Numbered from the stretch's first letter, positions 12,925 through 27,785 are shown. The stretch: 59,024 bases of DNA from Trichodelitschia bisporula (GCA_010356995.1 ML996695.1:1001061-1060084), one strand, 5' to 3'. The notes: generated by a model not told the origin, from the sequence alone. Translations and numbers: made by a program.

Positions 12925-13555
12925 GGTGCGGTGGGGGGTGGGTGTGAAGGGTCTGTGAAGATTGGAGGGTTGTGGCTCGGAGCTTGGAGCTTCCCGCGAG
13001 CGGCACCCCTCGCTTGCAGGCTTGACTAGTTCTAGTTCTACTCCGTAGGCGACGACATAACGAGGGTAAAATGTTCCACCATCACATCCCATCTTGGGAC
13101 ATATGTTCTTTTTCAGTTCGATTTAAGGTACTCAGAGGTACATGCGGCCTGGAGATGGGGAATGGGCAAATTTTCGACCTCTGGAAACATGCCCACCTCT
13201 ACGGAGTACTTCCATTCACATCTCGACCATGCCATTTCATCGACTCGCATTTGATACGACTCGCATACTGGTCATTGATCTCCCTCAAAGATCTGACGGT
13301 TACAAGTTTCTTATAATATCCGGCATTACGAGCTGCTCGCGCCTGTCCATGCCGCTCCAACCCTCCTCAGCTTGCTACTTTACGGGCCAGCTGGTCCTCG
13401 CATTGGATAACGAGCGTGAACCTTTCGGCGACGCTCCTATATTCGCAGTCCTGATGCCTTGGAAAAGGTTGTACGAGCCACTCTTACAGCATACCACACT
13501 CTAGGCTTTCACAACTGTCCCCTTCACCTCCGTCGAAGTGTCACCATCAAGCCTG

Positions 13556-15467
13556 TCATGTCGCAAAGAAAGCTTTCACCTGGTCCTCAAGCGGCACAAC
13601 AACCCCCTCATACACGGCCTGACAGAAGTCGTCATCCTCCAGATCCTTTTTCTTTGTGTCAAAGGTACAGAACACGCATCGCCGGACAACCATGTCGTAC
13701 TTCGCTCCCCATTCGTTGGACACGCGATCATCGTCGAGCAGACGCGTCGCCGTGATATAGTCGCTCAACATGTCCGCTGGCCCCTTGCTCACGCATTCGT
13801 TGGCTCTGCGGAGTTTCTCAAGCGGCTGACCGAGGCAGATCTCAAGCAAGAGGATGCCAAGAGCAAAGAGGGGAAAGTTGAGGATGTATGGGCAATGGTG
13901 ACGGTCGATACCGGCATCATGATCGCTCGCTGGTTTGGGGAGGATTCTGGCGATGTATACTTTCTGATAGTACTTTTTGGAGTCTTGAAGCACAAAGTGG
14001 ACATCCTCCTTTGTCCATCGGAAGCTCAGTAAAGGGGAGTTTTGCAATTGCAAGACGCTGGCCGCAATCGTACTGGCGAGTCTTATCCTGTCTGCTGCTG
14101 TCAAACTGGGAATATTCTCTCTTGAGCCGGCCAGAACTTGAGCCAAAGACAGCGATGACCAACCCGTAGTCCCAACTTGGGAGGAGCGGACTGTGTACAC
14201 GCTGTATCGACAGGAGTTTTGCGAGATGAAGCCCAAACAGGGGGCAGGTGTGGAACACCTAGCTGCCCATAATTGGTGACAGAAGTTTGTGATTCGGACT
14301 TCCTCCTCAGTCGTAACTGCTGCTGACCTCATAGTTGTAGTCATCGTTGCCGATTCCATTGTCGTAGTTGCTATTTGGAAAGATTCCTTGTCTTGCTGAA
14401 TGCATATGGTCTGGCGGGAACTGCTGCTGAACTGTCCAGAAAGGCTGTGCATCTTGGAGCTCATATCCGGCAGGAATCCCACACGCTTTTTCACTTTAAC
14501 GAATTTTTTTACCGGCTCCGGAGGTGCGGCCTTCTTTTCCTCAGGAACTGCTGCGGAGGGCGCGGGACTAGCGTTAGGTCTGTTGGAAGGGCAGATCTCC
14601 ACCTCTTGACAGAGCGTGGTCGGGTTCTCAGCGGCATGAGATCCTGGCAAAATAACAAGACGGAAGCGGATGTCTAGCGAAGCTTGTGGAGGCGACTGGA
14701 CCACCTTATTGTACTGCTCCGGATCGAGACGCCAATGCACGGAGTGCCCTGGCGCGCAGTTGCAGCTGAAAGATGCGCAAAGTGCGCTGTATACGGCATG
14801 TACACAGTCGCGAATGATTCGAAAATGACCAAACCGGCGCTGGGACAGTCGCGACCTCTCCAGACCCATGTTTTGATGTGTTAATCTTTCTATTACCCGA
14901 CCACTGCTCTCCATTTTCCCCAGCAAAATGTCCAGGTCCGATTTGGCGAGGCTGAACCAGCCCTTTTTCCAAGTCCGTTTAAGGCTCTTTTCGTCTTCCC
15001 ATCGGACCTGACTAACGGTTAGTTCTAGAACCCATTTTGGTGACTCCACACTCACGGTATGAGTGGTTCTGGGTACGTACCTTGCCATTCTCATCGAGGT
15101 CCAGCCGCAGTTTGAACGCGTTCGCAGCCTCGTTCATTTGCATTATCGTGGACATATAGACGTCATATGATACCGCCAGCCGCGCCTGCAGCTTCTGCGC
15201 AAGCTCAGGATCCTTCCATTTGGGACCACCGGGATTGCGAAGCAGCTCTTCAAGCTCAGAAGGGTGCACAAGGTCGCTCAGCAATTGCTCGCACGTATTT
15301 CTGAATATGACCTCTTGTGTGCTAAGGCAATTTATAAGATCAGCCAGTTCGCGCCTGTACTGCTGAAAGCGGCGGATAGTGCGAATCCCGTCTTGATAGT
15401 GTTCGAGTGCGCTGATGATCAGAGGGATGGCCGCTAAGGCAACGCCAACTACCTCAAAACCAGACAT
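13556..15467 (-). CDS. Fungal protein with HeLo-like hydrophobic N-terminal helix and C-terminal kinase-like/DUF7580-type domain
   Basis: Start MSGFEVVGVALAAIPLIISALEHY; one intron ~15009-15080; C-terminal RIRLASTIAASVLQL..W..DVHF, LFALGILLLEICLG, Y..VVRRCV.C.F, FCQAVYEGVV.PLE pattern. Confidence 0.82.
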
Positions 15468-15846
15468 TGCGGACGACACGGGCACATTCAACAAAGATCG
15501 GTTATATAACTCCTTGGCCCTCAGAAATACCCCGGATATTTGGAGCACAGAAGGTTGGGAAAGGTTTGTTGGAGGAATGGTGCATCGGTGATGGGGGAGG
15601 GGGGAGGGGCGATGAAGGAGTTGGCGAAGGGCTGAGGAGGCGCTTGCTCCATCCATCGGACAGGGCTGCACTAGCACGAAACAAGCCAAGTGCGGGGCTC
15701 GAATGGGGCTGAGGCCATGGGCAACGACGAGGCTCCATCGGGTCATGCGGGGCGTGAAACTGTTATCTTCATGGCCTTCACACCTATTCACTACATCTCA
15801 TATGGGAGACAGGACACTACTTTCTACAGCTCTGTGCTTCTAACTG

Positions 15847-18800
15847 ATGGCTGGAATCGGTGGTAAGTCGTGCTTGGGCCCTGTCGAGGGAAATAACAGC
15901 CGCTGAGAAGACCAAGTTGCTGCGGCTGCCGAAGCATCAGCGAGACTGTCCAACATCCCAACTCTCGTCTTGACTTGTCGAACAGCTTTTCTCGAGCTCA
16001 ACGCCGGTGCCGCAAAGTCCACCAAGTATGGCGACCTTTCTGCTAGGCTTGCCGACGAGAAGGGACGCTTCAGTCTCTGGACCACGAATATCGGCGCCCA
16101 CCGATCGGGCAAAAGCTCACTTGATTTCCGGCTTCGAGACTCTTCGCACTTGCAACTCCAGGTTGTGAAGTTGCTACGGAAATTGGCCGATAACCTAGCC
16201 GAAGGTACGTCTTGCTAGGCACCGACGTTGAAATTTGAACTGAATAGGAGGCCAGCGGATGAGATTCTCAGCGGCAAAAGAGTGCCATGGGATGAGCTTC
16301 CAAGCGACGATTCGGACTCAGAATCCGATTCAGACTCTGACGCAGCATTCCCCCCCCCATCTGAAGCTACTGAAATCGGCCAAATCATGAACAGTATCAC
16401 CAACACTTTGACCCTGCTCCTTCGACTCTCGGCATCAATTCGCAATCCGACTCAACACGATCGATGGCTCAACTCTAAATCAATCGATACGTCGGCATTC
16501 GAGCACTGGGACATCGAGCATGTGAGAGCCAAATTTCCGCAAACCGACGAGCTTCGTGCGGAACGCTTGGGCAGAGGCATTTCCCGAAGGCGCCAGTTCT
16601 TCAATTACAGGAAGCAGCATCGCGAACGGCTTGCACAGGGCTTCGAGCCGGCCGAACCGACTGCGACAGAAAGCCAGAAGCCTGCACCCACAATCGTGCA
16701 AAGCACAGTTGCATCTTCTATTCCAGAAATGGCCAAGATGCCCACATCTAATGCTCCCCTGGAAGACGACGAACAATCGGACATCGCATTCACTGCTACT
16801 TCGTTTGCCACATCAGTAGCTCAGGGAAGCAAACTAACTGTGCCTTTGCTACCGTGCGGAACTGAATATGACAAGCCATTTGAGTGTCCGTTTTGCTGCA
16901 GCATTGTCGAGATGGAGGACCGCCGCGCTTGGAAGTACGCTATTTCTAGACCATGTTAAGTGCCTACCTGTGACTAACCTTGATAGGAAGCACGTCTTCG
17001 CCGACTTGGCACCGTACATGTGTCTTTCTGGCGAGTGTGTTATGGAAAATCAGCATTTCCCCTCTCGTCATTCTTGGATGCAGCATGAATTCAATACACA
17101 TTGGACGACTCTGGTCTGCGTCTTCGGATGCCCCAATTCCTTTAGCTCGAAGCAGACCTTGAGGGATCATCTGATCCAACATCATCAAGAAAGCGTCGTA
17201 GGACGAGTTGAGGCCGTCCTTGCGACTTGCGAGAAGCCCAAGCCGCGCGACACTCCGAAGGCTTGTCTTCTCTGTGCATCCACTCTACCGAACTTTGAAT
17301 CCTACGGAAAGCACACCGCAAAGCATCTGCAGGAGCTGGCACTGTTTAGTTTGCCAACTCTCGATAACGAAGCTGACGACGGAAGCGAGAGCGCTGAAAC
17401 AGACGAAGAGGTGCACGGGGACCTTTCCGCAGCCGACGATGGAAGCCGGAAGAGTGGAGCTGATGACATACCACCATTCGAGCCCCGAGCCCCATCACCA
17501 TCTAAGCTTTCAAATGCTTCGTCTGAATCTCTTGGCATCCCACTGCAGCGCTCTGCGACGGATGTGGAGAAATACGCCGCCATTATAGATGATATTCTGG
17601 CTCAGTCAGATCCCAGTGCCACTTCTGACACCTCCCACCAGGCTGTGTACGAGAGCTTGCAGGCCAAGCTTGGATATGACATTTCTCACAACGCGGTACT
17701 GTCCTTTCCCTTCCCATCTCGTCCGTCCCTCAACTAATACCCCCAAGAAAGCAATATTGCGCCTAATCCTGCGCGTAAAAGTGGCCCGCACCATCAAGTT
17801 CTCCAAAATGCGTCCTTCGCAGCTCGACGCTGCACCCTTGAATCCTACAGACCCCCCCACAATCGTTCTAGTCGATGTGGACAATGAGCCCCCTTCAAAT
17901 ATATCAGGGGGGCCAGAAAAATGCCCCGTCCAAACCTGCGAGTACCACGTCAAGGGCTTTGCGCGCAAAAGGGACAGAGACATCCATGTGCCAATACAAC
18001 ACTACAAGGGACCGATGATGTGTCCCTTTTGTACAGATGCCGAAGGTGGGGCCTTGAGACGCTTTGATTACCTCTCTTCCTTGATGATCCACCTGGAATC
18101 TGAGCACCCCCGTGTCCAAATGGAGGAGTCCATTTGCCCCATGTGTGGTCTGTGGAACATCCACTACGATCAGCATCTGCACGGCTGCATGCTGCGTGCT
18201 GTGGAGCACGGCTACGCTTCAGGCTGGCCGAACAGTACCTACACCATGGAGGAACTTACCAAGCTTATGGTTCATGAGTTCTCTAAACCCTCTGGGGCGC
18301 CTGTGAGTTCGGACAAGCGGTCCGAAATCCAGTCGTCGGGGAAGGTGGAACTCTCCCAGCCATTGAATACAGACGCCCCCTTGGGGTCCCTTGGCGAACC
18401 GGCGGCGTCTGGTGACCCCTCAAAACAGCGACTCGTTGAGTGGCTCAATGAGGGCGACGACGAGGCCTCGAGACAGTGGGCTGTGCAGCACACGGAAGAG
18501 GCGCATGTCCAGCACCTAAACAACAAGACGGAGGCTATGGTGGACGTTGCAGTGGCACACGAGTACGCCAAGGAAGATGCTGAGCGCAAAGCGGCGACTG
18601 CAGCTAAATCAGCGGAAGAGAAGGCCAAGCACGAATTTGAGATGGAGGGGGCGCGGAAGAAGCTTGAGCAGCTAGACCGGCAGGCGGAGGTTGATCGTGT
18701 TGGAGATAAGGCGCGCTTCTATTCTGCTGACGAGAGGTATTGGCAGCTGACGGACGAGACGGGCTGGTGGGATGAGGGCGAGCGCTCTATACAGCTCGAG

Positions 18801-21800
18801 ATTCGCGAGCTTGACGAGGAGATCGATAAGAAGAAGTATGAGCTGCGTCGGCTTAAGGATCGCATTGATGCCGAGGAGGAGCGCGCTCAGCAGGAGAGCA
18901 AGGAGAAGGAGCGGGAGACGCGGCTTAAGGTCGAGCAGCTCAAGCAGGAGCAGGGTAGGCAGGCTACTGATTTATTGCGTGATAAGGAGCGCAAGCGCAC
19001 CTTGGCTGAAAACGCCGAGCAGGTGTACAGGATTAAGCTGGAGCTCGAGGCTAAGGAGGCTGCGACTGCAGCGAAAGCAGCAGAAGAAGAAGTGGCGAAG
19101 CGGCGGCTAGATGATATAATACAGCCGCCGATTAGGTTCACGGATGCTATAGGAAGGAAGTTTAACTTCCCGTGGCATCTGTGCAAGTCGTGGAAGGTAA
19201 GTTTTGCCTTTTGTATATCCGCTCCCGCTAACCCCCCTTAGGGAATGGAGACACTCATTAACCAAGCCTTCCTCGACTTCGATGTTATCGATAAACACGT
19301 TCACGAAGGCCACTACGACCTCCTCGGGCCCGATGGCGAAATCATTCTACCGGAGGTGTGGGAATCTGTGGTTAAGCCCGACTGGGCTATTATCATGCAC
19401 ATGTGGCTCGGACCGCCGAAGCTTAAAAGTGACGAGGAACTTAGCCGTCACGAGGAGCTTGAGCGCAATGAAGAGCTTGAGACTAAAGAGGAGCTTGAGA
19501 ACGACGAGGAGGCATTGAGACTGGAGGCCAGGGTAGCACGCGAGCACGAGGAGAGACGCGAGCAGGGGCACCTAGTGTTCGAGCATGACCGCGGCACCGT
19601 ATTGAAGCGACAAGCTGCACAGTCCGGACGGTCAGATTTCGCGTTTGACATGGATGACGTTGTTGACGAGAATCCCGAGCCATTTGACGAAGAACAGTTT
19701 GATTTTGACAACTGTATCTTTACTCAGGCACTGGACTCCGAGATCATCACAGCACCGACCCCACCACAGCACGCGGAGGAGACCCGCATCCAAAAACCAT
19801 ATAACGACGCGGCATCTCGGACTGCGATGGGCATCGTAGGCGAGCGCGAGCTTCAACCCCGAACGCCCCAGGAGACGCAACGCAACCAGGAAATATCAGA
19901 ACTGCAGATGCCGGGCGCGACGTGGGTGGCTGATGCGGAGGCCAGAGCGACTGAGGCAAGGGAGGCTGCGGTGGAGGCCATCGTGGAAGCCGAGCACCAG
20001 CTTCAGCGCCTAGCGTCTCTCGAGAAGGCACCGCGCGGCGAGGAGATATTGGGTCTCAAGGATGCACTAAGACAACAAGCGGTGCCACACGCGAAGGAGC
20101 CACACGGACACCACTTGGACGAGGCGGCGGCGCGCTCTAACGAGCAGGCCGTCGCTCAGGCCCGCCAAGCTGCGGCTGATGCTGCGGTGAGGGCGCAAGA
20201 GGAAGCTACGGCCCGTGCTCGCCGTCTCGATGATCTTAAGGCCCCGGCTGAAGAGCACCGCCGGCGCGCTGAGGCGGATGAGCGGCGCGTATGGCTGGAG
20301 CGTGAGGTTCGCGCCCTCGAGATTATACGCCAGGTGGAGGCGCAGCGAATGACGCTCCCACCGACTGCTACTACGCCGCTGCAGATTGCTGCCCCTCAGC
20401 GTAGCCCGGCACAGGGCCTGGGGGGGAATCCGTTGGCGAACGAGGAGGGTTCCGGGAGTTTGGGCGAGAGTGTGCTCCAGCGGGAGCGTGATGTTGCGAG
20501 TGCGCCGAGCGACAATCGTGACCAAGAGGAAGCGACATCCTGGATTCCGCAAGCGGCAACCGACGGAAAGTTCAAGCCGAGTTTAGGTGATAGTGTCCTG
20601 CTCCATCAAATGGCCCCAGATCATCCTGACGTGGCAGCACGAGCCGGCTCAAAAACAATCTACGTGGAGTCCGATGACGGCGACGACGTAAACGAAGAGG
20701 CAGAGTCATACTACTTCAACACGCTGCCTGGAGATATTCGCCGCCAACCGATCATCGGCAAGGCCGAGCGCGGACCTTCAGCAGAGCGGCTTCTTGAGCC
20801 GGCGGCTAAGCTGAGGACGCAGCACGAGAGCGCCGACGCCTGCGCCGACGCTCGCGCCACGGAAGATCATCACGACTACGACCGTGACAGGTCGCGCACG
20901 CCGCCTCCTAACCGCCGCGAGGAGATCCGCCGCCTCCAGCGCGAGCACGAAGAGGCCGTCGCCCACGCCAACGAGCAGTCTGTCGCGCAGACCGGAGCTT
21001 CCGCGCGTGCTCAAAAGGAAACCGCGAGCCGCGCCCACCCCCTCGATGATCTCGAGACCCAGGCCGCGAGGCAGCGCGCCGAGGATAGTCATACCGATGT
21101 CGGATACGATACCGACGACGATATTTTAGCCAAGGGAGCCTGCTATCACTGCATGATAACGAAACGCCGTTGCATCATTAACGACGGTGCCTCACAGTGC
21201 GTGCAATGCCAAGTCCTCAAGCGGGAATGTAATCTTGGACAAGGGGGGGCCGCGGCAAAAAAGCGCGAGATCCGCGCGCAGAAGAAGACGAGGAAGCGGC
21301 GAGGCGAAGCCAAGTACCGGACTGCGCGGGAGCTACGTCGGGAGGAGCGGGAGCAGGAGCGTGACAGTGTGGCTGAACGCGACGAGGGTCGTGATACCGA
21401 CTACGGTACTTTAGCCGAGATGATGACTGATCCCACTCTTTTGCAAACGCATGCTGAGCCTCAGCACGTTTTGGGCACCGCTGCGTATGCGCCCGTTGCT
21501 CTACCGCCTGTCGCCAACGGGTCTTTCGCCAACGGATACTCGCCAACCCTAGGGAGCGCACTGGAGGACGACGAATCAACAATAAAATGTTTTTGCGGCT
21601 ACAGCGACGATGACGGCAACACGGTGTTCTGCGAGCTTTGCCGCACCTGGCAGCATATCCTGTGCTACTACCCTGGCAGTCAGGTTCCCGAGGTTCATGA
21701 GTGTGTCCAATGTCACCCGCGCCCTTACGATGCCAGAAGCGCGGCAGAGCGGCAGCGCCAGTTCGTGCATACTGCGGCCAAGAAGGAGGAGATGCGTAGG

Positions 21801-22436
21801 CTTGACGAGCAGACGCGCCGCGACTACGAGCGTGCCCACGCCGCCCGCGAGGAGATCCGCCGCCTCCAGCGGGAGCACGAAGAGGCCGTCGCCCACGCCA
21901 AAACAATAAAATGTTTTTGCGGCTACAGCGACGATGACGGCAACACGGTATTCTGCGAGCTTTGCCGCACCTGGCAGCATATCCTGTGCCACTACCCTGG
22001 CAGTCAGGTTCCCGAGGTTCATGAGTGTGTCCAATGTCACCCGCGCCCTTACGATGCCAGAAGCGCGGCAGAGCGGCAGCGCCAGTTCGTGCATACTGCG
22101 GCCAAGAAGGAGGAGATGCGTAGGCTTGACGAGCAGACGCGCCGCGACTACGAGCGTGCCCACGCCGCCCGCGAGGAGATCCGCCGCCTCCAGCGGGAGC
22201 ACGAAGAGGCCGTCGCCCACGCCAAAACAATAAAATGTTTTTGCGGCTACAGCGACGATGACGGCAACACGGTATTCTGCGAGCTTTGCCGCACCTGGCA
22301 GCATATCCTGTGCCACTACCCTGGCAGTCAGGTTCCCGAGGTTCATGAGTGTGTCCAATGTCGCCCGCGCCCTTACGATGCCAGAAGCGCGGCAGAGCGG
22401 CAGCGCCAGTTCGCGCATTGCAGCCGCTTCGGGTGA
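15847..22436 (+). CDS. Giant (~2,110 aa) mosaic zinc-finger protein: conserved helical N-domain + C2H2 array, DEK-C-like, C2H2, coiled coil, ubiquitin-like, Zn2Cys6-like, 3x PHD
   Basis: Introns 15863-15910, 16205-16255, 16935-16986, 17696-17747 and 19197-19241 all splice in frame. Motifs RFSLWTTNIGAH..SLDFRLRD, FECPFC..WKKHVFADLAPYMC, HLQELALFSLP. The first micro-exon/start is less certain. Confidence 0.8.
21578..22413 (+). repeat. Tandem 324-bp repeat, ~2.6 copies, each encoding a PHD finger plus a coiled-coil segment
   Basis: Units start at 21578, 21902 and 22226. Copies 1 and 2 differ at 2 positions; the partial copy 3 differs from copy 2 at 1 position. Confidence 0.97.
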
Positions 22437-24002
22437 TCGTAAAGGGAAGCGGGCTCCCGCCAAAAGCCAGAAAAAACGAGCCAAAGAACCTGTTACCACA
22501 TATGGCTGGGCCCATCCGGAGCAGTCGAACAACGCAGACCGCGCGGCGAGCAGTCCACGAGATCAACAGAGAGCCTGCTATCATTGTCACATAACTGGAC
22601 GCCTTTGCACCATTAACGAAGCTGCCTCACAGTGCGTGCAGTGCCAAGTCGATAAGCGAGAATGTACTTTTGGACAAGAGGGGGAGCGAGAGCGAGAGCC
22701 GCAGCGGGAGCGTGTCAGTCGCCTCGGGACCCTTGCCGAGAGTTTTGAGCAGACACTCCAGCAGCGCAAGCGCCAGACGACTGCAGACAAGGTGAAGGAG
22801 GAGGAGCGCGAACTTGACGAGCAGCCGCGCCGCGTCTACCAAGCCGCCGCGCAGGCCGGACCTACCGTAGGTGCTCAAAAGGAAACCGCGGGCCGCGCTC
22901 GCCCCCTCGATGATCTCGCGACCCTGGCCGCTACGCAGCGCACCGAGATCCGCGAGCAGATACACCAGCCACCCGAGCGCAGTTGGGCCGACGACCGGAT
23001 GGAAGCTGCTGTCCGCGCCAGCCGCCTTCCCTTGGCTCATCGGGGAATGGTGAGCGACCATATCTTTCCGATATCCCCCGACTCCCCCCGGGCACCATCA
23101 TCCCCCCGAGCCGCGTTAAACCCGGCCGCAAGGCCAAGGCCGAGTCTCTGCACGAGCCCAAATAGATCGAGCGGCGCGCACACCTTGAGCGCGAGGCCCC
23201 TAGCCGCGAAATCACGCCCTGGGATGTGGTGCAGCGAATGCAGGACGAGGAGACACGCGAGGAGCAGGCACACCGTACAGAGGAGTTGCGTAGGGAGGAT
23301 GAGGTGCGCCGCAAGCAGCTTATCAACGAAGCAGCCGAGCAGTTGGGCCCCGAGCGGTTGGGCCCCGAGCAGTTGGGTCGCGAGCGTGAAGTGGCCGAAC
23401 AGCGCCCACGCCTCGAACGCGAAGTAACCGAGCAGCGCCTACGCCTCGAACGCGAACTGGCCGAGCAACGCCCACGCCTCGAACGCGAGACCCGCAACTG
23501 AACTGCCGAGGCAGCGGAGGAAATAGCAGTGGATAGCGAAGTGGACCGTGGTGTGGGGACGGAAGCGGACTACGACACGGTGGACTCTCTGCTTCCTTTT
23601 GTCCGTTTCTTTCAAACGTCAACCAGTCGCCTGAAATACCCCCACGTCGACTGGGGTGACAGCGTGCCGGTGAAAAGATCGGCGAAGGCTACAGACTGCC
23701 GCTTCCCCTGCCCACAGTGTAGCCGTTGGTTCCCCTGGAAGAGTGATCTGACGCAGCACATGAAGATACACCGCTTGCCGTGCGCATATTGTACCTGTTC
23801 GTTCATGTCGGCGAAGGATCTGAGGCACCACATAACGACGCACTTAGACGACCGCCGCTACCCGTGCCCACAGTGTGACAGTTCGTTCCAATGTCACAAG
23901 GACCTGACGCGCCACATGACGAAGTGCCGCCCGAGGCGTGATAAAGAAGCAGAGACGGACCGCAGCACGGCACTGGGATTGGAAAAGCTCTATCAGCAGT
24001 AG
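22412..24002 (+). pseudogene. Out-of-frame 3' continuation of the mosaic gene (second Zn2Cys6-like cluster, E/R-rich repeats, three C2H2 fingers)
   Basis: Shifted frame reads RIAAASGDRKGKR...ACYHCHITGRLC..CVQCQVDKREC. Possible intron 23050-23165; in-frame TGA at 23499-23501; then CPQC..H..H, CAYC..H..H and CPQC..H..C fingers ending at 24002. Confidence 0.6.
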
Positions 24003-25205
24003 CTGGTGGAGTATGGGTTCTCGATCGGTGAGAGTTAGGAGGAGACCGGGTTACGTGTTACCAGTTTGCCCACCGGTAGAACTGCTATCCCGTTCCGGGG
24101 GTGTGCATAGGCCACATGCTAAGACATTTAGCTCGGTTGAGGCCCTTAGATAGTTCTAGTAGTTGTAGATTCACTTAATCCAGAACAACCTTTCACACTG
24201 CTTTGAGAGTTCAAGAGGCTCGCAAGAAAGGAATTGGCCGTCGAGATCCCAACCCGAGAACCTGCCCAGCTGCCAGCGGAACCGCGGAACGATATGACAG
24301 ACAGTTGCGGAGGCCTCAACCCCTTTTCCGCGACTTCACCCCCCCCTCTCGCCACTGGGGAGCCCTGGAAACGCATCCGGTGGACGTCTTCCCACCTTCC
24401 TTGAGCTCGAGGCTATGAGAGAGAGAGGGATGATCCAAACTGGAAAGATGACGATGACGCATGTAGTCGTCAAACCCAACCCAGAATTGACAGACGATCC
24501 GCATCTTGATCCGATTCAATCGACCACTACCGTGGGGGGTCCAGAGCTTTATCCAAAGCATGTGGAGGAAATCAAGAGTGGATTGCATAGGCCAGGAGGG
24601 GCTCAGGAAGCGTTAGCTTCCTTACGTGAACTGTCTACCCGTGCTGGTGAATTTGTCAAAAGCGAGCATGACACTGCTGAACCTGTTATCATGGATCTTG
24701 ACCCAGATGGAGTGATATGAGTGGACGAGCCCGTTTATTAGTTCAAATGGCAAGGAGCTGGCCGAATGATAGTTTACTTTTGCGGACATTGTGATATCTT
24801 AAGCTCGAATAGCCGATAAGATTGTTAAGCACGTGCTGCGTGGAACGTCGGCAGGGTCTGTTGCTTGTGGGGAAGTCTCGTTGTGTTCATCCCCTAGGTT
24901 GATGCACCGCCTCCGAGGCGCGGCGAGCATGCCCTTCGCAAAGCCGGGAAGATCATATCGTGAGGCGCTGGACAAAAGTGCTGCCCAGTACGGCGTCAAC
25001 CCATGTGAGCATAGCTAATGCCAATAGCGGGAGCGAAGTTGGAGTCGTAGAATCCAACGCAGAGAGCGGACGGGGGCAGTTGTGCCGTCGGCTTACATGT
25101 GTTTAAACGCCTTCGTGCCGTTAATGAGGGCATGATAGACCATCTTTGGTATCACATTACGATGCTCTATCCATTAGACTAAGCATACACAGCATACCAC
25201 CCCCT

Positions 25206-26429
25206 CTAAAGCCCAAAGCAATTAGCATAATACACCACCGTCGCCGCCCAATCCGTAAACAACCCCTTGATCCCAACCTGCTTGACCAGCACATCAAGCA
25301 CCGTATACATATCCCCATCATTATTAATAACCTCGTGAATAGGCTGGTAAAACGAGTCTCCACCTTTATTCAACCACCCTGACCGATCAAAACTCCACGT
25401 CACAATATCCAACCCTGCCTTCCGCGCTGCAACCGCGTAGGCGGACGGCACAATCTTCTTATTCGCATCCAGCTGCGTCAGCGCCCAGAAACCCGGTGCC
25501 ACGATCTTGAGCCCCTGCGCCGCGAGCCCGGGCAGACTGGCCGTGGCATTGATGTAGCCCTCCTGCGTCGAGACTCGGGGGTCGAGAAACAGCGCCTGCT
25601 CAGCGAAGTCCGGCGCCGTTTTGATCCAGTAAGCAATGTCCTCGAACTGGAAGGACTGCGGCCAGACGCGGCTGGCGTCGATGCCGGCGGCTTTGTAGTC
25701 GGCGATGATGTCGCTGAGGAATTGTTCCTGGGTGTAGCCGTTGAAGGGCATGGGCACGGCGGGGAGCTTGGCCTCGGAGGTGAATTTCAGCCCTAGGTCG
25801 TCGACCATGGCGATGTACGCCTTGTGCGTCATCAAGGTCCCACAGGTGGCGTACAGATCTGTGCGGAACCGCGGCGTGCCGTCCAGGTATTCGGTCAGCG
25901 TGGTGGCATTCAAATTCACGCCATCCATCTTCGCGCACAAGCTTTCAAACTCCGCCAGTGTGATATCGGCGGTACAGCAATTCGCACTCGCCGGGATCCC
26001 GCGCTGATTATCCGCCGGTGTGAAGCCCTGCGTGCATTTCTTCGCCAGTTCCGGGCGCGTCAGGATGTCCGTCGTGGAATGCAGGTCGCACATGCTGTGC
26101 CGGCACACGAGCTGCTTGTCCGCCGTGAAGGTGACGTCGCACTCGATGACGCCGGCGCCCATTCGCGCTGCCGCTGCATAGCCCTCGCGTGTATGCTCGG
26201 GGAACTGCAGGGGCGCGCCGCGGTGTGCGAAGACGAAGTCGCTCCGGTGGAAGGGGCCCTCCGAGCACGCGGCTAGCTGGTCTTTGAGCGGGCCGGCGTC
26301 CATGTTGTCGACGAGGTAGTAGGGCCGCGGGCCGAGTTCGACGCGCATCGGCGTTTGATGGTGGTGCGGGCCGCCCCAGGGGAGGGCGGCGGCGGAGGAG
26401 GCCAGGAGGAGGGGGAGGGAAGGTCGCAT
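25206..26429 (-). CDS. Secreted glycerophosphodiester phosphodiesterase (GDPD), intronless
   Basis: Signal peptide MRPSLPLLLASSAAA; AHRGAPLQFPEHT, IECDVTFT.D.QLVCRH, PQSF, GLFTDW. Confidence 0.93.
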   Translation of the reverse strand: MRPSLPLLLASSAAALPWGGPHHHQTPMRVELGPRPYYLVDNMDAGPLKDQLAACSEGPFHRSDFVFAHRGAPLQFPEHTREGYAAAARMGAGVIECDVTFTADKQLVCRHSMCDLHSTTDILTRPELAKKCTQGFTPADNQRGIPASANCCTADITLAEFESLCAKMDGVNLNATTLTEYLDGTPRFRTDLYATCGTLMTHKAYIAMVDDLGLKFTSEAKLPAVPMPFNGYTQEQFLSDIIADYKAAGIDASRVWPQSFQFEDIAYWIKTAPDFAEQALFLDPRVSTQEGYINATASLPGLAAQGLKIVAPGFWALTQLDANKKIVPSAYAVAARKAGLDIVTWSFDRSGWLNKGGDSFYQPIHEVINNDGDMYTVLDVLVKQVGIKGLFTDWAATVVYYANCFGL

Positions 26430-27785
26430 GGTGGTGAGGTGGAGAGCTGGAGCTGGAGCTGGAGGTGAGGTTAACGGCTGCGGGAGCTTCGGGTCATATG
26501 TCTCAGCCGGGGAGAGCCTGCCTGGCTAATTTGCTTAGCTTGAGTGCTATTCTTGCCGGCTGGATGGCCGTCCTTGACCGTGTACGCGTCGGCGAATGGT
26601 TTCGACATCTGGTGGCACGCCTTGCGGCGATCTCAAGGGCTGTGGTTGTTACACCCGCCGTTGACGTCGCTGGTTCCTGGGCTTTCCGCGTGGAGGTCGG
26701 ACGAGGCTGTCATTGTCGAGCTCGAATTCGCTGCCATATCGCGAGAGAAGAGGGACATGTCGATCCCACGTGGGCTCGTGGATCGAGAATACTCGTTTCC
26801 TAAGAGGAGCCAAGATGGAAGACGGGAACTGGACACAAGCTTCGAGGTCTCTGTAGAGGGGCAGGGTTGGTGAGTGGTCTTGACCCCTGTCGGTCTGTGG
26901 CTACCCCGCGCGGGGCTAGGTCAAGCAAGGAAGCTGGAGGAGTGGGGTACGTGGGATGCTGTCACTGATCAGGAACAGGCGGAAGCGGAAGCGGAAGCGA
27001 GAGCAGAAATCAAAGCAATTGAAGGGATGAGATTATAGGCAATGTACTTTTAGGCGTCTCCTAAGTGTTCAATGGCTTTGCGGACATTTTGGACGGGACA
27101 GTAACGCTGGGCGAGGTGCAAGGCTTCAAGAAGTGCTCTCAGTGACAACATGGTGAGCCGCACGAATTGAGTTCCTTGGAGAAAATACTGCTCTTGATAT
27201 AGGTAGTAAAAACTTCATAAGACGGCAAATGCCCTCTGAAATGGCCTTGTAAGGGTTCAACTTCCTGTCTATAGAGCCAACTTAACTTTACCGGTTATCA
27301 GCTCACATGACCCCACACTGGGTATATATACTGTTGCTCTCGCATAGATCATTCAACGGGGACTTCTCCCCCGTTCAACCTTCATCACCGTATCAACTGC
27401 TCAGCGAGGCAACCTTTACACACTGACCTACCTCTGTACTCTGGGTTCGAGAAGAGATGATCGCACGTGTCGGCGGTGAAGATAAGCTACATGGTTGACT
27501 CCTTTGCCACGGATAATGCATCGATAATGGCTGCTGTCCTTCACCGACGTGTATGAGCATCTCTTCACGTACCCAGCATACAAAGGTAAGTGTGTTCTCC
27601 GCTAGCTAGCCGAGAGACGCATGACTCTGCTCTCATTTGAAGGTCGAGTACAAGCGAGCTCTGTCAGGCATATCTCGAGGAGTGCGACTGGAAAGACGGA
27701 CTGTCCAATTTTGCAATTCGACATGCTTTAACCAGGTGCGAAAACGGAGACAGCCGTGGTACGGTCCACCTATCAGTCTCCCGTC

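Follow-up and report, generated by a model that had tools for sequence, protein, structure and literature searches.

We analysed a stretch of 59,024 nucleotides of DNA of the dung fungus Trichodelitschia bisporula (GCA_010356995.1 ML996695.1:1001061-1060084), called the window below, in which all positions are counted from the first letter. An earlier note, made from the sequence alone, had described 17573-23930 as a mosaic tail assembled from fragments of several unrelated nuclear or chromatin genes. This region is no separate object: it is the 3' two-thirds of a single plus-strand gene whose tail contains pieces of other genes of the same species. The coding sequence (CDS) runs from an ATG at 15847 to a TGA at 22434-22436 and encodes 2111 residues in exons 15847-15862, 15917-16204, 16256-16934, 16987-17695, 17748-19196 and 19242-22436, all on the plus strand, with five introns confirmed by RNA. 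The spliced product has the same length and sequence as KAF2400547.1 (hypothetical protein EJ06DRAFT_434184 of T. bisporula; P0053), which was retrieved by a search of 1.84 billion representative proteins. Among the 150 representatives listed, P0053 alone covers the tail; apart from P0057 and P0063, described below, the others match chiefly the part with the ubiquitin-like domain (ULD), one of them extending to query residue 142. Frame 0 has no stop from 17748 to 22433 outside the intron and is open for 1064 codons, and the other frames close about every 100.

What is the evidence for the transcript? Contigs of two public runs were aligned to 13000-25500 and treated as RNA because they skip GT..AG introns; stretches without RNA cover or with low depth, such as the bin 21757-22173, were not used as evidence. 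Spliced contigs cover 15683-24758 (plus strand) piecewise: one set spans 15683-18908 with four GT..AG joints, and others span 19689-21448 and 22538-24758, all with 0 mismatches. The introns skipped are 15863-15916, 16205-16255, 16935-16986 and 17696-17747; a fifth, 19197-19241 (45 nt), is seen in loose RNA ends that connect 19196 to 19242. A single contig covers 15961-18908 across introns, which places the zinc-finger head and the beginning of the tail on the same RNA. Gaps between contigs are located only in sequence that is repeated or shared with paralogs. At both ends of the Set3-like segment described below, contigs of the host gene reach 29-30 nt into the shared sequence, as expected for 31-mer contigs, and one host contig spans the junction at 19767. 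The junctions are real.

The gene has a native core. A family head at 15952-17473 (plus strand), comprising an N-terminal helical region and an atypical C2H2 zinc-finger region, is collinear with P0052 and P0054 at 31-35% identity (tblastn). Farther along, at 19122-19409 (plus strand), lies a ULD_2 ubiquitin-like domain (PF22893) split by the spliced 45-nt intron; in the spliced model it scores 116.2 bits against a cut-off of 24.5 and covers profile positions 3-83 of 85. P0052 and P0054 match the window solely at 15952-17473 and 19122-19427. The relatives P0052 (834 aa), P0054 (Phyllosticta capitalensis, 828 aa) and P0055 (Chaetomium strumarium, 984 aa) have the head followed by one or two ULD_2 domains. 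For P0052 the precomputed Pfam column gives PF26082 and PF22893; PF26082 is known from that column only, and our local Pfam copy gave no PF26082 match. Both parts of the window protein are thus collinear with members of a fungal head-plus-ULD_2 family, but its 2111 residues compare with 828-984 in the relatives. Some 550 additional residues separate its head from the ULD, and roughly 1000 more follow the ULD. Neither P0052 nor P0054, the two relatives compared by tblastn, matches these extra residues. Of the 150 relatives listed, about 66 start with a Met directly after the 45-nt intron, and P0051 continues past the exon end there, which suggests that the intron position is common to the family. 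The earlier note had counted the ULD among the captured fragments; it was right that the domain is real, but the shared architecture of the relatives indicates that it was inherited in the family and not captured.

Two side observations concern this part of the gene. Just after the ULD, at 19450-19511, an 18-nt tandem repeat of 3.4 copies encodes EELE(R/T/N)(N/K)E. Over 18838-19254, summed RNA contig depth (606 and 290 in the two runs) is far higher than elsewhere in the gene; other genes with a ULD or a coiled coil may have transcripts with words in common with this segment.

Donors were sought in protein databases and among the RNA contigs. The clearest foreign piece is the captured 5' end of a Set3-like gene at 21420-21770 (plus strand), with start Met, N-terminus and first PHD finger. 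It resumes at 22411-22567 (plus strand), past the stop, where donor residues 147-198 are encoded in frame +1. The source is P0001, a 1069-aa PHD and SET protein of the same species, which was 94% identical in a search with 21420-21770. By BLASTP, 95 of 101 residues agree between P0001 residues 46-146 and 21459-21761, as do 51 of 52 between residues 147-198 and 22411-22566 read in frame +1. At the nucleotide level the donor's first ~166 codons, start Met included, are at 21420-21761 plus 22411-22567, with 10 differences listed in 500. A donor RNA contig matches 21419-21761 and then 22411-22567 and has foreign flanks, of which the one after 22567, translated by eye, reads PPPTKRPKTN, identical to P0001 residues 199-208. 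Its depth is also much higher: in the two runs the donor contig stands at ~322 and 116, against 39-57 and 15-30 for host contigs. Set3-like orthologs in five other fungi share the N-terminus and PHD finger and begin M-TD..Q.HAEPQ, exactly as the window does at 21420. The piece thus opens with the authentic start codon of the donor, which bears out the earlier reading of a Set3-like N-terminus with its own Met. The precomputed Pfam column shows a SET domain in 41 of the 43 hits from the search with 21420-21770; this, together with the N-terminus and PHD finger shared by the orthologs, gives the direction of transfer as donor to window.

The PHD finger (PF00628) scores 47.9 bits against a cut-off of 24 and is found in three stretches of P0053, and its C4HC3 zinc ligands (C57, C59, C71, C74, H79, C82, C95 and C98) are invariant in the alignment. 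The piece is a fragment only: Pfam gave no SET match in P0053, and similarity to P0001 ends at donor residue 198. Compared with the Set3-type PHD and SET proteins of Dothideomycetes (P0001, P0002-P0004 and P0008), the window piece has the same start Met and C4HC3 PHD finger, with 94-98% amino acid identity to P0001 and 52-58% to the orthologs over the aligned part. It differs in that it lacks SET, has its PHD finger tripled, is embedded in another gene and is partly out of frame. It is of note that the public model of P0001 opens with 45 residues common to no ortholog, and that the window copy (21420-21458), the donor RNA contig and the five orthologs all begin M(M)TD..Q.HAEPQ. The annotated N-terminus, or first exon, of P0001 is probably a modelling error.

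A second piece, at 19620-19767 (plus strand), is a captured fragment of 49 codons corresponding to residues ~363-411 of P0063 (KAF2404612.1), a 562-aa protein of the same species; BLASTP, tblastn and an RNA contig all support it. Identity to P0063 is ~97% over 19620-19767, and the protein alignments with P0063 extend over 19548-19766. An RNA contig of high per-contig depth covers just 19620-19767 with 4 listed differences and foreign flanks; translated by eye, the flanks read DSVFARSDRL and PPFTIVVERD, both present in P0063. Depth in the donor contigs (Set3-like and P0063) is ~300 per contig against 39-57 for the host. Distinct intact donors of high nucleotide identity, proposed by the earlier note as the mark of capture, thus exist for two segments, those from the Set3-like P0001 and from P0063.

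A third protein of the same species, P0057 (KAF2403367.1, a coiled-coil protein of 602 aa), matches six places in the tail by tblastn at 40-69% amino acid identity, rising to 78% over a 50-residue core: 20118-20351, 20199-20501, 20883-21077, 21735-21899, 22059-22223 and 23169-23468, all on the plus strand. The best-preserved module, 20118-20501 (plus strand), corresponds to P0057 residues 269-346 at 69% and 424-532 at 49%, and contains the core (residues 297-346). A second module lies at 20862-21083 (plus strand), and within it 20915-20971 agrees at 98% with the end of the tandem unit described below. The P0057-like copies are older than the Set3-like and P0063 pieces. As far as sequence comparison goes, P0057 probably supplies, or shares, the repeated coiled-coil modules. 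A Pfam scan found no family in P0063 or P0057; their look-alikes in the Atlas search, which we treat as leads, are unnamed ascomycete clusters only, and for P0063 these suggest membership of a conserved ascomycete family. To judge by the longest contig recorded for each protein, the window gene, P0001, P0063 and P0057 appear to lie on four different scaffolds of the species.

The tail has also grown from within. At 21578-22418 (plus strand) Tandem Repeats Finder detects 2.6 tandem copies of a 324-bp unit (99% matches), and self-BLAST gives 99.2% over 517 nt. The unit comprises the PHD finger and a P0057-like coil piece, and the protein therefore has three PHD fingers, all with intact zinc ligands. 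Older, dispersed duplicates pair 21133-21249 with 22568-22684 (82%) and 20984-21083 with 22848-22947 (86%). To judge from these matches, the tail looks like a former array of units, each with a zinc-cluster-like motif and a coil, that was invaded by the Set3-like piece. As to the origin of the tandem unit, the join of the PHD piece to the coil could not be reconstructed convincingly.

Translation now stops within this region. At 22410 the window has an extra T that is absent from the donor contig, the joint from 21761 to 22411 skipping 649 nt (2 x 324 + 1). As a result of this +1 frameshift (22410-22436, plus strand), frame 0 ends at the TGA at 22434-22436, and the rest of the Set3-like piece is in frame +1. 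All three repeat copies contain this T, which may have reached the last of them by exchange between copies. The contig 22538-24758 is collinear with the DNA, and the part after the stop is thus transcribed. It contains a relic at 22568-23498 (plus strand) made up of a second Zn2Cys6-like motif (motif B), a P0057-like module split by 23050-23165, and 33-nt repeats, followed by an in-frame TGA (23499-23501) and three intact C2H2 fingers that end at a stop at 24000-24002 (the segment 23499-24002, plus strand). The terminal fingers (PF00096 / PF13894) score 42.5 bits against a cut-off of 27 and are domains, as the earlier note had them, but they are outside the CDS, beyond both the frameshift and the TGA. 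There is no ATG upstream of them, and the relic pieces have no start codon. Because of the frameshift, the second zinc-cluster-like motif and the terminal fingers are transcribed, untranslated relics, and we read the ~1.5 kb after the stop as recently lost coding sequence carried as 3' untranslated region (UTR). Farther downstream, near 23050-23165, the reading frame shifts once more. We also considered a 116-nt intron at 23050-23165 that would join the relic frames; it was rejected, as it is unspliced in the contigs of either run. Within the relic, 23335-23488 contains in-frame tandem repeats (15 nt x 3.4 and 33 nt x 3.3) encoding a coil of (E/L)(R/Q)PRLERE type.

The remaining segments have features but no donor. 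The C2H2 pair seen by the earlier note is real. At 17913-18203 (plus strand), it resembles a conserved family of fungal transcription factors in their zinc-finger region: 17913-18131 aligns over 65-73 aa (E ~1e-13) with P0045 (49%) and P0050 (45%), beginning after, and thus lacking, the family's first finger. No same-species donor was found for 17913-18203. Of 8000 candidates scored in a search with the exon 17748-19196, 9 proteins were returned, none of them a close same-species paralog; coiled-coil words may have crowded the candidate list. P0053 residues 515-760 matched no shorter protein, which is a miss of the word index, since relatives of the C2H2 pair were found otherwise, and is uninformative on donors. 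The DEK_C-like stretch at 17567-17774 (plus strand), interrupted by the spliced intron 17696-17747, does not sustain the DEK-C bundle proposed for it: it covers 49 of 54 positions of PF08766 but scores 18.9 bits (E 0.0015), under the cut-off of 24.8, and the 80-aa stretch had 0 matches in a PDB sequence search.

The consensus spacing of Zn2Cys6 clusters (PF00172) is CX2CX6CX5-12CX2CX6-8C. Motif A at 21133-21249 (plus strand, in frame), identified from the sequence as CX2CX6CX8CX2CX6C, fits it, as does motif B, and all six cysteines are retained in both copies despite 18% divergence. The spacing thus agrees with the clusters that the earlier note named; the Pfam Zn_clus score does not, being 13.1 bits (E 0.11) against a cut-off of 21 for A, with no match for B. 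No donor was found for the zinc-cluster motifs, the terminal fingers or the motif PSLGDSVLLHQMAPDHPDVA, and a WW_2 match adjoining PSLGDSVLLHQMAPDHPDVA scores 22.3 bits, below its cut-off of 27. The peptide strings quoted by the earlier note are all encoded at or near the places it gave them. As for its mosaic of unrelated genes, P0001, P0063 and probably P0057 bear out that description, but the ULD is native and the other segments are without donors.

Upstream, a divergent gene stands head to head with the long gene on the minus strand at 13559-15797. It has one spliced intron (15006-15078) and encodes a DUF7580 domain (76.5 bits), and RNA contigs cover it several times more deeply than the long gene. 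Downstream lies an open frame of 439 codons at 25206-26525, also on the minus strand. Literature searches with the species name (judged by title) and with Pfam family names found no publication on the long gene.

How did the gene come to be this way? Given the observed gene structure, donors, repeat and frameshift, we think it quite likely that this is an expressed gene with a native head and ULD_2 whose tail grew by copying of gene fragments and by internal duplication and was then frameshifted. The gene belongs to a Pezizomycotina family whose members have a helical, C2H2-bearing head, a linker and a ULD_2. In T. bisporula the linker and, chiefly, the region after the ULD have expanded into a long extension rich in coiled coil. 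Repair or recombination acting on DNA would have copied pieces into it, sense-oriented and each keeping the frame of its donor, from the Set3-like PHD and SET gene, from the P0063 gene and, earlier, from a P0057-like coiled-coil gene. Internal duplication would have produced first the dispersed zinc-cluster-like and coil units and, recently, the 324-bp tandem repeat that tripled the PHD finger. Where the last PHD copy ends, the extra T has shifted the frame, so that the protein now ends at residue 2111 and ~1.5 kb, comprising the Set3-like remainder, the zinc-cluster-like motif, coil and three C2H2 fingers, is left as 3' UTR. The tail may tolerate such additions because the working parts of the protein are the head and the ULD.

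Several points weigh against this account. No single RNA record spans 18908-19689 or 21448-22538, and one continuous transcript is therefore inferred rather than observed. Evidence for the T at 22410, and for how many copies the repeat has, comes from the assembly and from partial contig depth: depth totals 297, compared with 198.6 for the donor form, and the bin 21757-22173 has RNA depths of 4.6 and 1.4. For P0063 and P0057 the donor-to-window direction is presumed, and copying at the DNA level can be told from copying via RNA only with the donor loci in hand. The two introns inside domains, from which the earlier note argued for DNA-level capture, are both real in RNA but do not help that claim, because one is in the native ULD, where an intron gives no evidence for capture, and the other is in the DEK_C-like stretch that falls below threshold. 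Finally, the 1064 open codons of frame 0 argue for past selection on the tail and against its being pure junk.

Alternative explanations differ in which of these facts they account for. If several adjacent independent genes, or a mis-assembled genome, were being read through as one, the two breaks in RNA contig cover would be natural, the Set3-like piece would have its own Met, as it does, and 324-bp tandem repeats are prone to mis-assembly. But the breaks coincide with sequence that is repeated or shared with paralogs, where 31-mer contigs must break, and host-specific contigs enter the shared segments by 29-30 nt. Moreover the intron 19197-19241 is spliced, frame 0 is stop-free from 17748 to 22433 apart from this intron, the public model likewise has 2111 aa, and the relic pieces lack start codons; we regard this explanation as highly improbable. 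The patchwork could instead have arrived as one block, a (formerly) mobile Helitron-like element with gene fragments that inserted after the ULD, the open reading frame (ORF) running on into it. All identified pieces are indeed in the same orientation, and fungal Helitrons carrying captured genes are described in PMC4289320. This would not explain why the ages differ, the Set3-like and P0063 pieces being 97-98% identical in nucleotides and the P0057-like modules 40-69% in amino acids, nor why the pieces are read in their donors' own frames within one long ORF; and self-BLAST found no second copy of the tail within the 59-kb window. No transposon hallmarks were seen in the window, though no search for element termini was made. 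A block insertion therefore strikes us as improbable.

Plant nucleotide-binding leucine-rich repeat (NLR) immune receptors carry integrated domains, the so-called integrated decoys. By analogy, the captured chromatin and transcription domains could have been selected as baits which, perhaps together with the head-to-head DUF7580 neighbor, sense something aimed at those host proteins. Such selection would fit the long open frame through several captured pieces, the eight PHD zinc ligands intact in all three copies, the six cysteines kept in both zinc-cluster-like copies and the head-to-head position of a DUF7580 gene. Substitutions tell otherwise: between the Set3-like piece and its donor, 7 codons differ non-synonymously and 2 sites synonymously (read by eye from the RNA contig), and the internal duplicates have ratios of non-synonymous to synonymous change (dN/dS) of 0.64 and 1.36 (Nei-Gojobori; small samples of 99-120 nt), so that captured and duplicated modules evolve about neutrally. 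In addition, Pfam at E up to 0.1 found no NACHT, NB-ARC or other NLR domain in P0053, the frameshift discarded a zinc-cluster motif and three C2H2 fingers, no chromatin role is known for P0063 or P0057 and neither has a Pfam family, and just two of the four identified sources are chromatin or transcription proteins. We do not favor decoy selection, and would be surprised if it proved correct.

A broader version of our preferred explanation, fragment copying followed by duplication and frameshift, is that a process acting genome-wide, now or recently, copies short coding pieces of expressed genes sense-wise into other transcribed genes. It could be template switching during repair, or RNA-templated repair, with this gene as a repeated recipient whose tail would record events of different ages. 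Among the products would be the Set3-like piece, which begins no more than a few bases from the donor's start codon. We hold this to be rather unlikely; if true, the species would lend itself well to work on the transfer of sub-genic fragments between fungal genes.

In either version, this is a real, expressed chimeric gene and a fresh example of a known process. It offers a clean, datable fungal case of a coding gene growing by pasted pieces, with donors, recipient, junctions and transcripts all visible. The steps after capture are likewise on view: a captured domain was amplified in tandem, the frame shifted, and the severed part decayed. There are consequences for annotation too, in that the public model of 2111 aa hides 1.5 kb of recently lost coding sequence and that of P0001 probably needs a different N-terminus. 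Plant integrated decoys resemble the window protein in having foreign nuclear-protein domains fused to a host protein of other function; unlike them, it has no nucleotide-binding or NLR architecture, no selection signal on the pieces and no known partner. A second comparison is with capture of gene fragments by transposable elements, namely the Helitron- and Pack-MULE-borne fragments of plants and the captured genes of fungal Helitrons (PMC4289320, PMC3288121, PMC1947982). Such capture involves sub-genic pieces of several unrelated host genes, in one orientation and co-transcribed, just as in the window gene. The difference is that here an ordinary expressed gene has received the pieces, which lengthen its ORF in frame.

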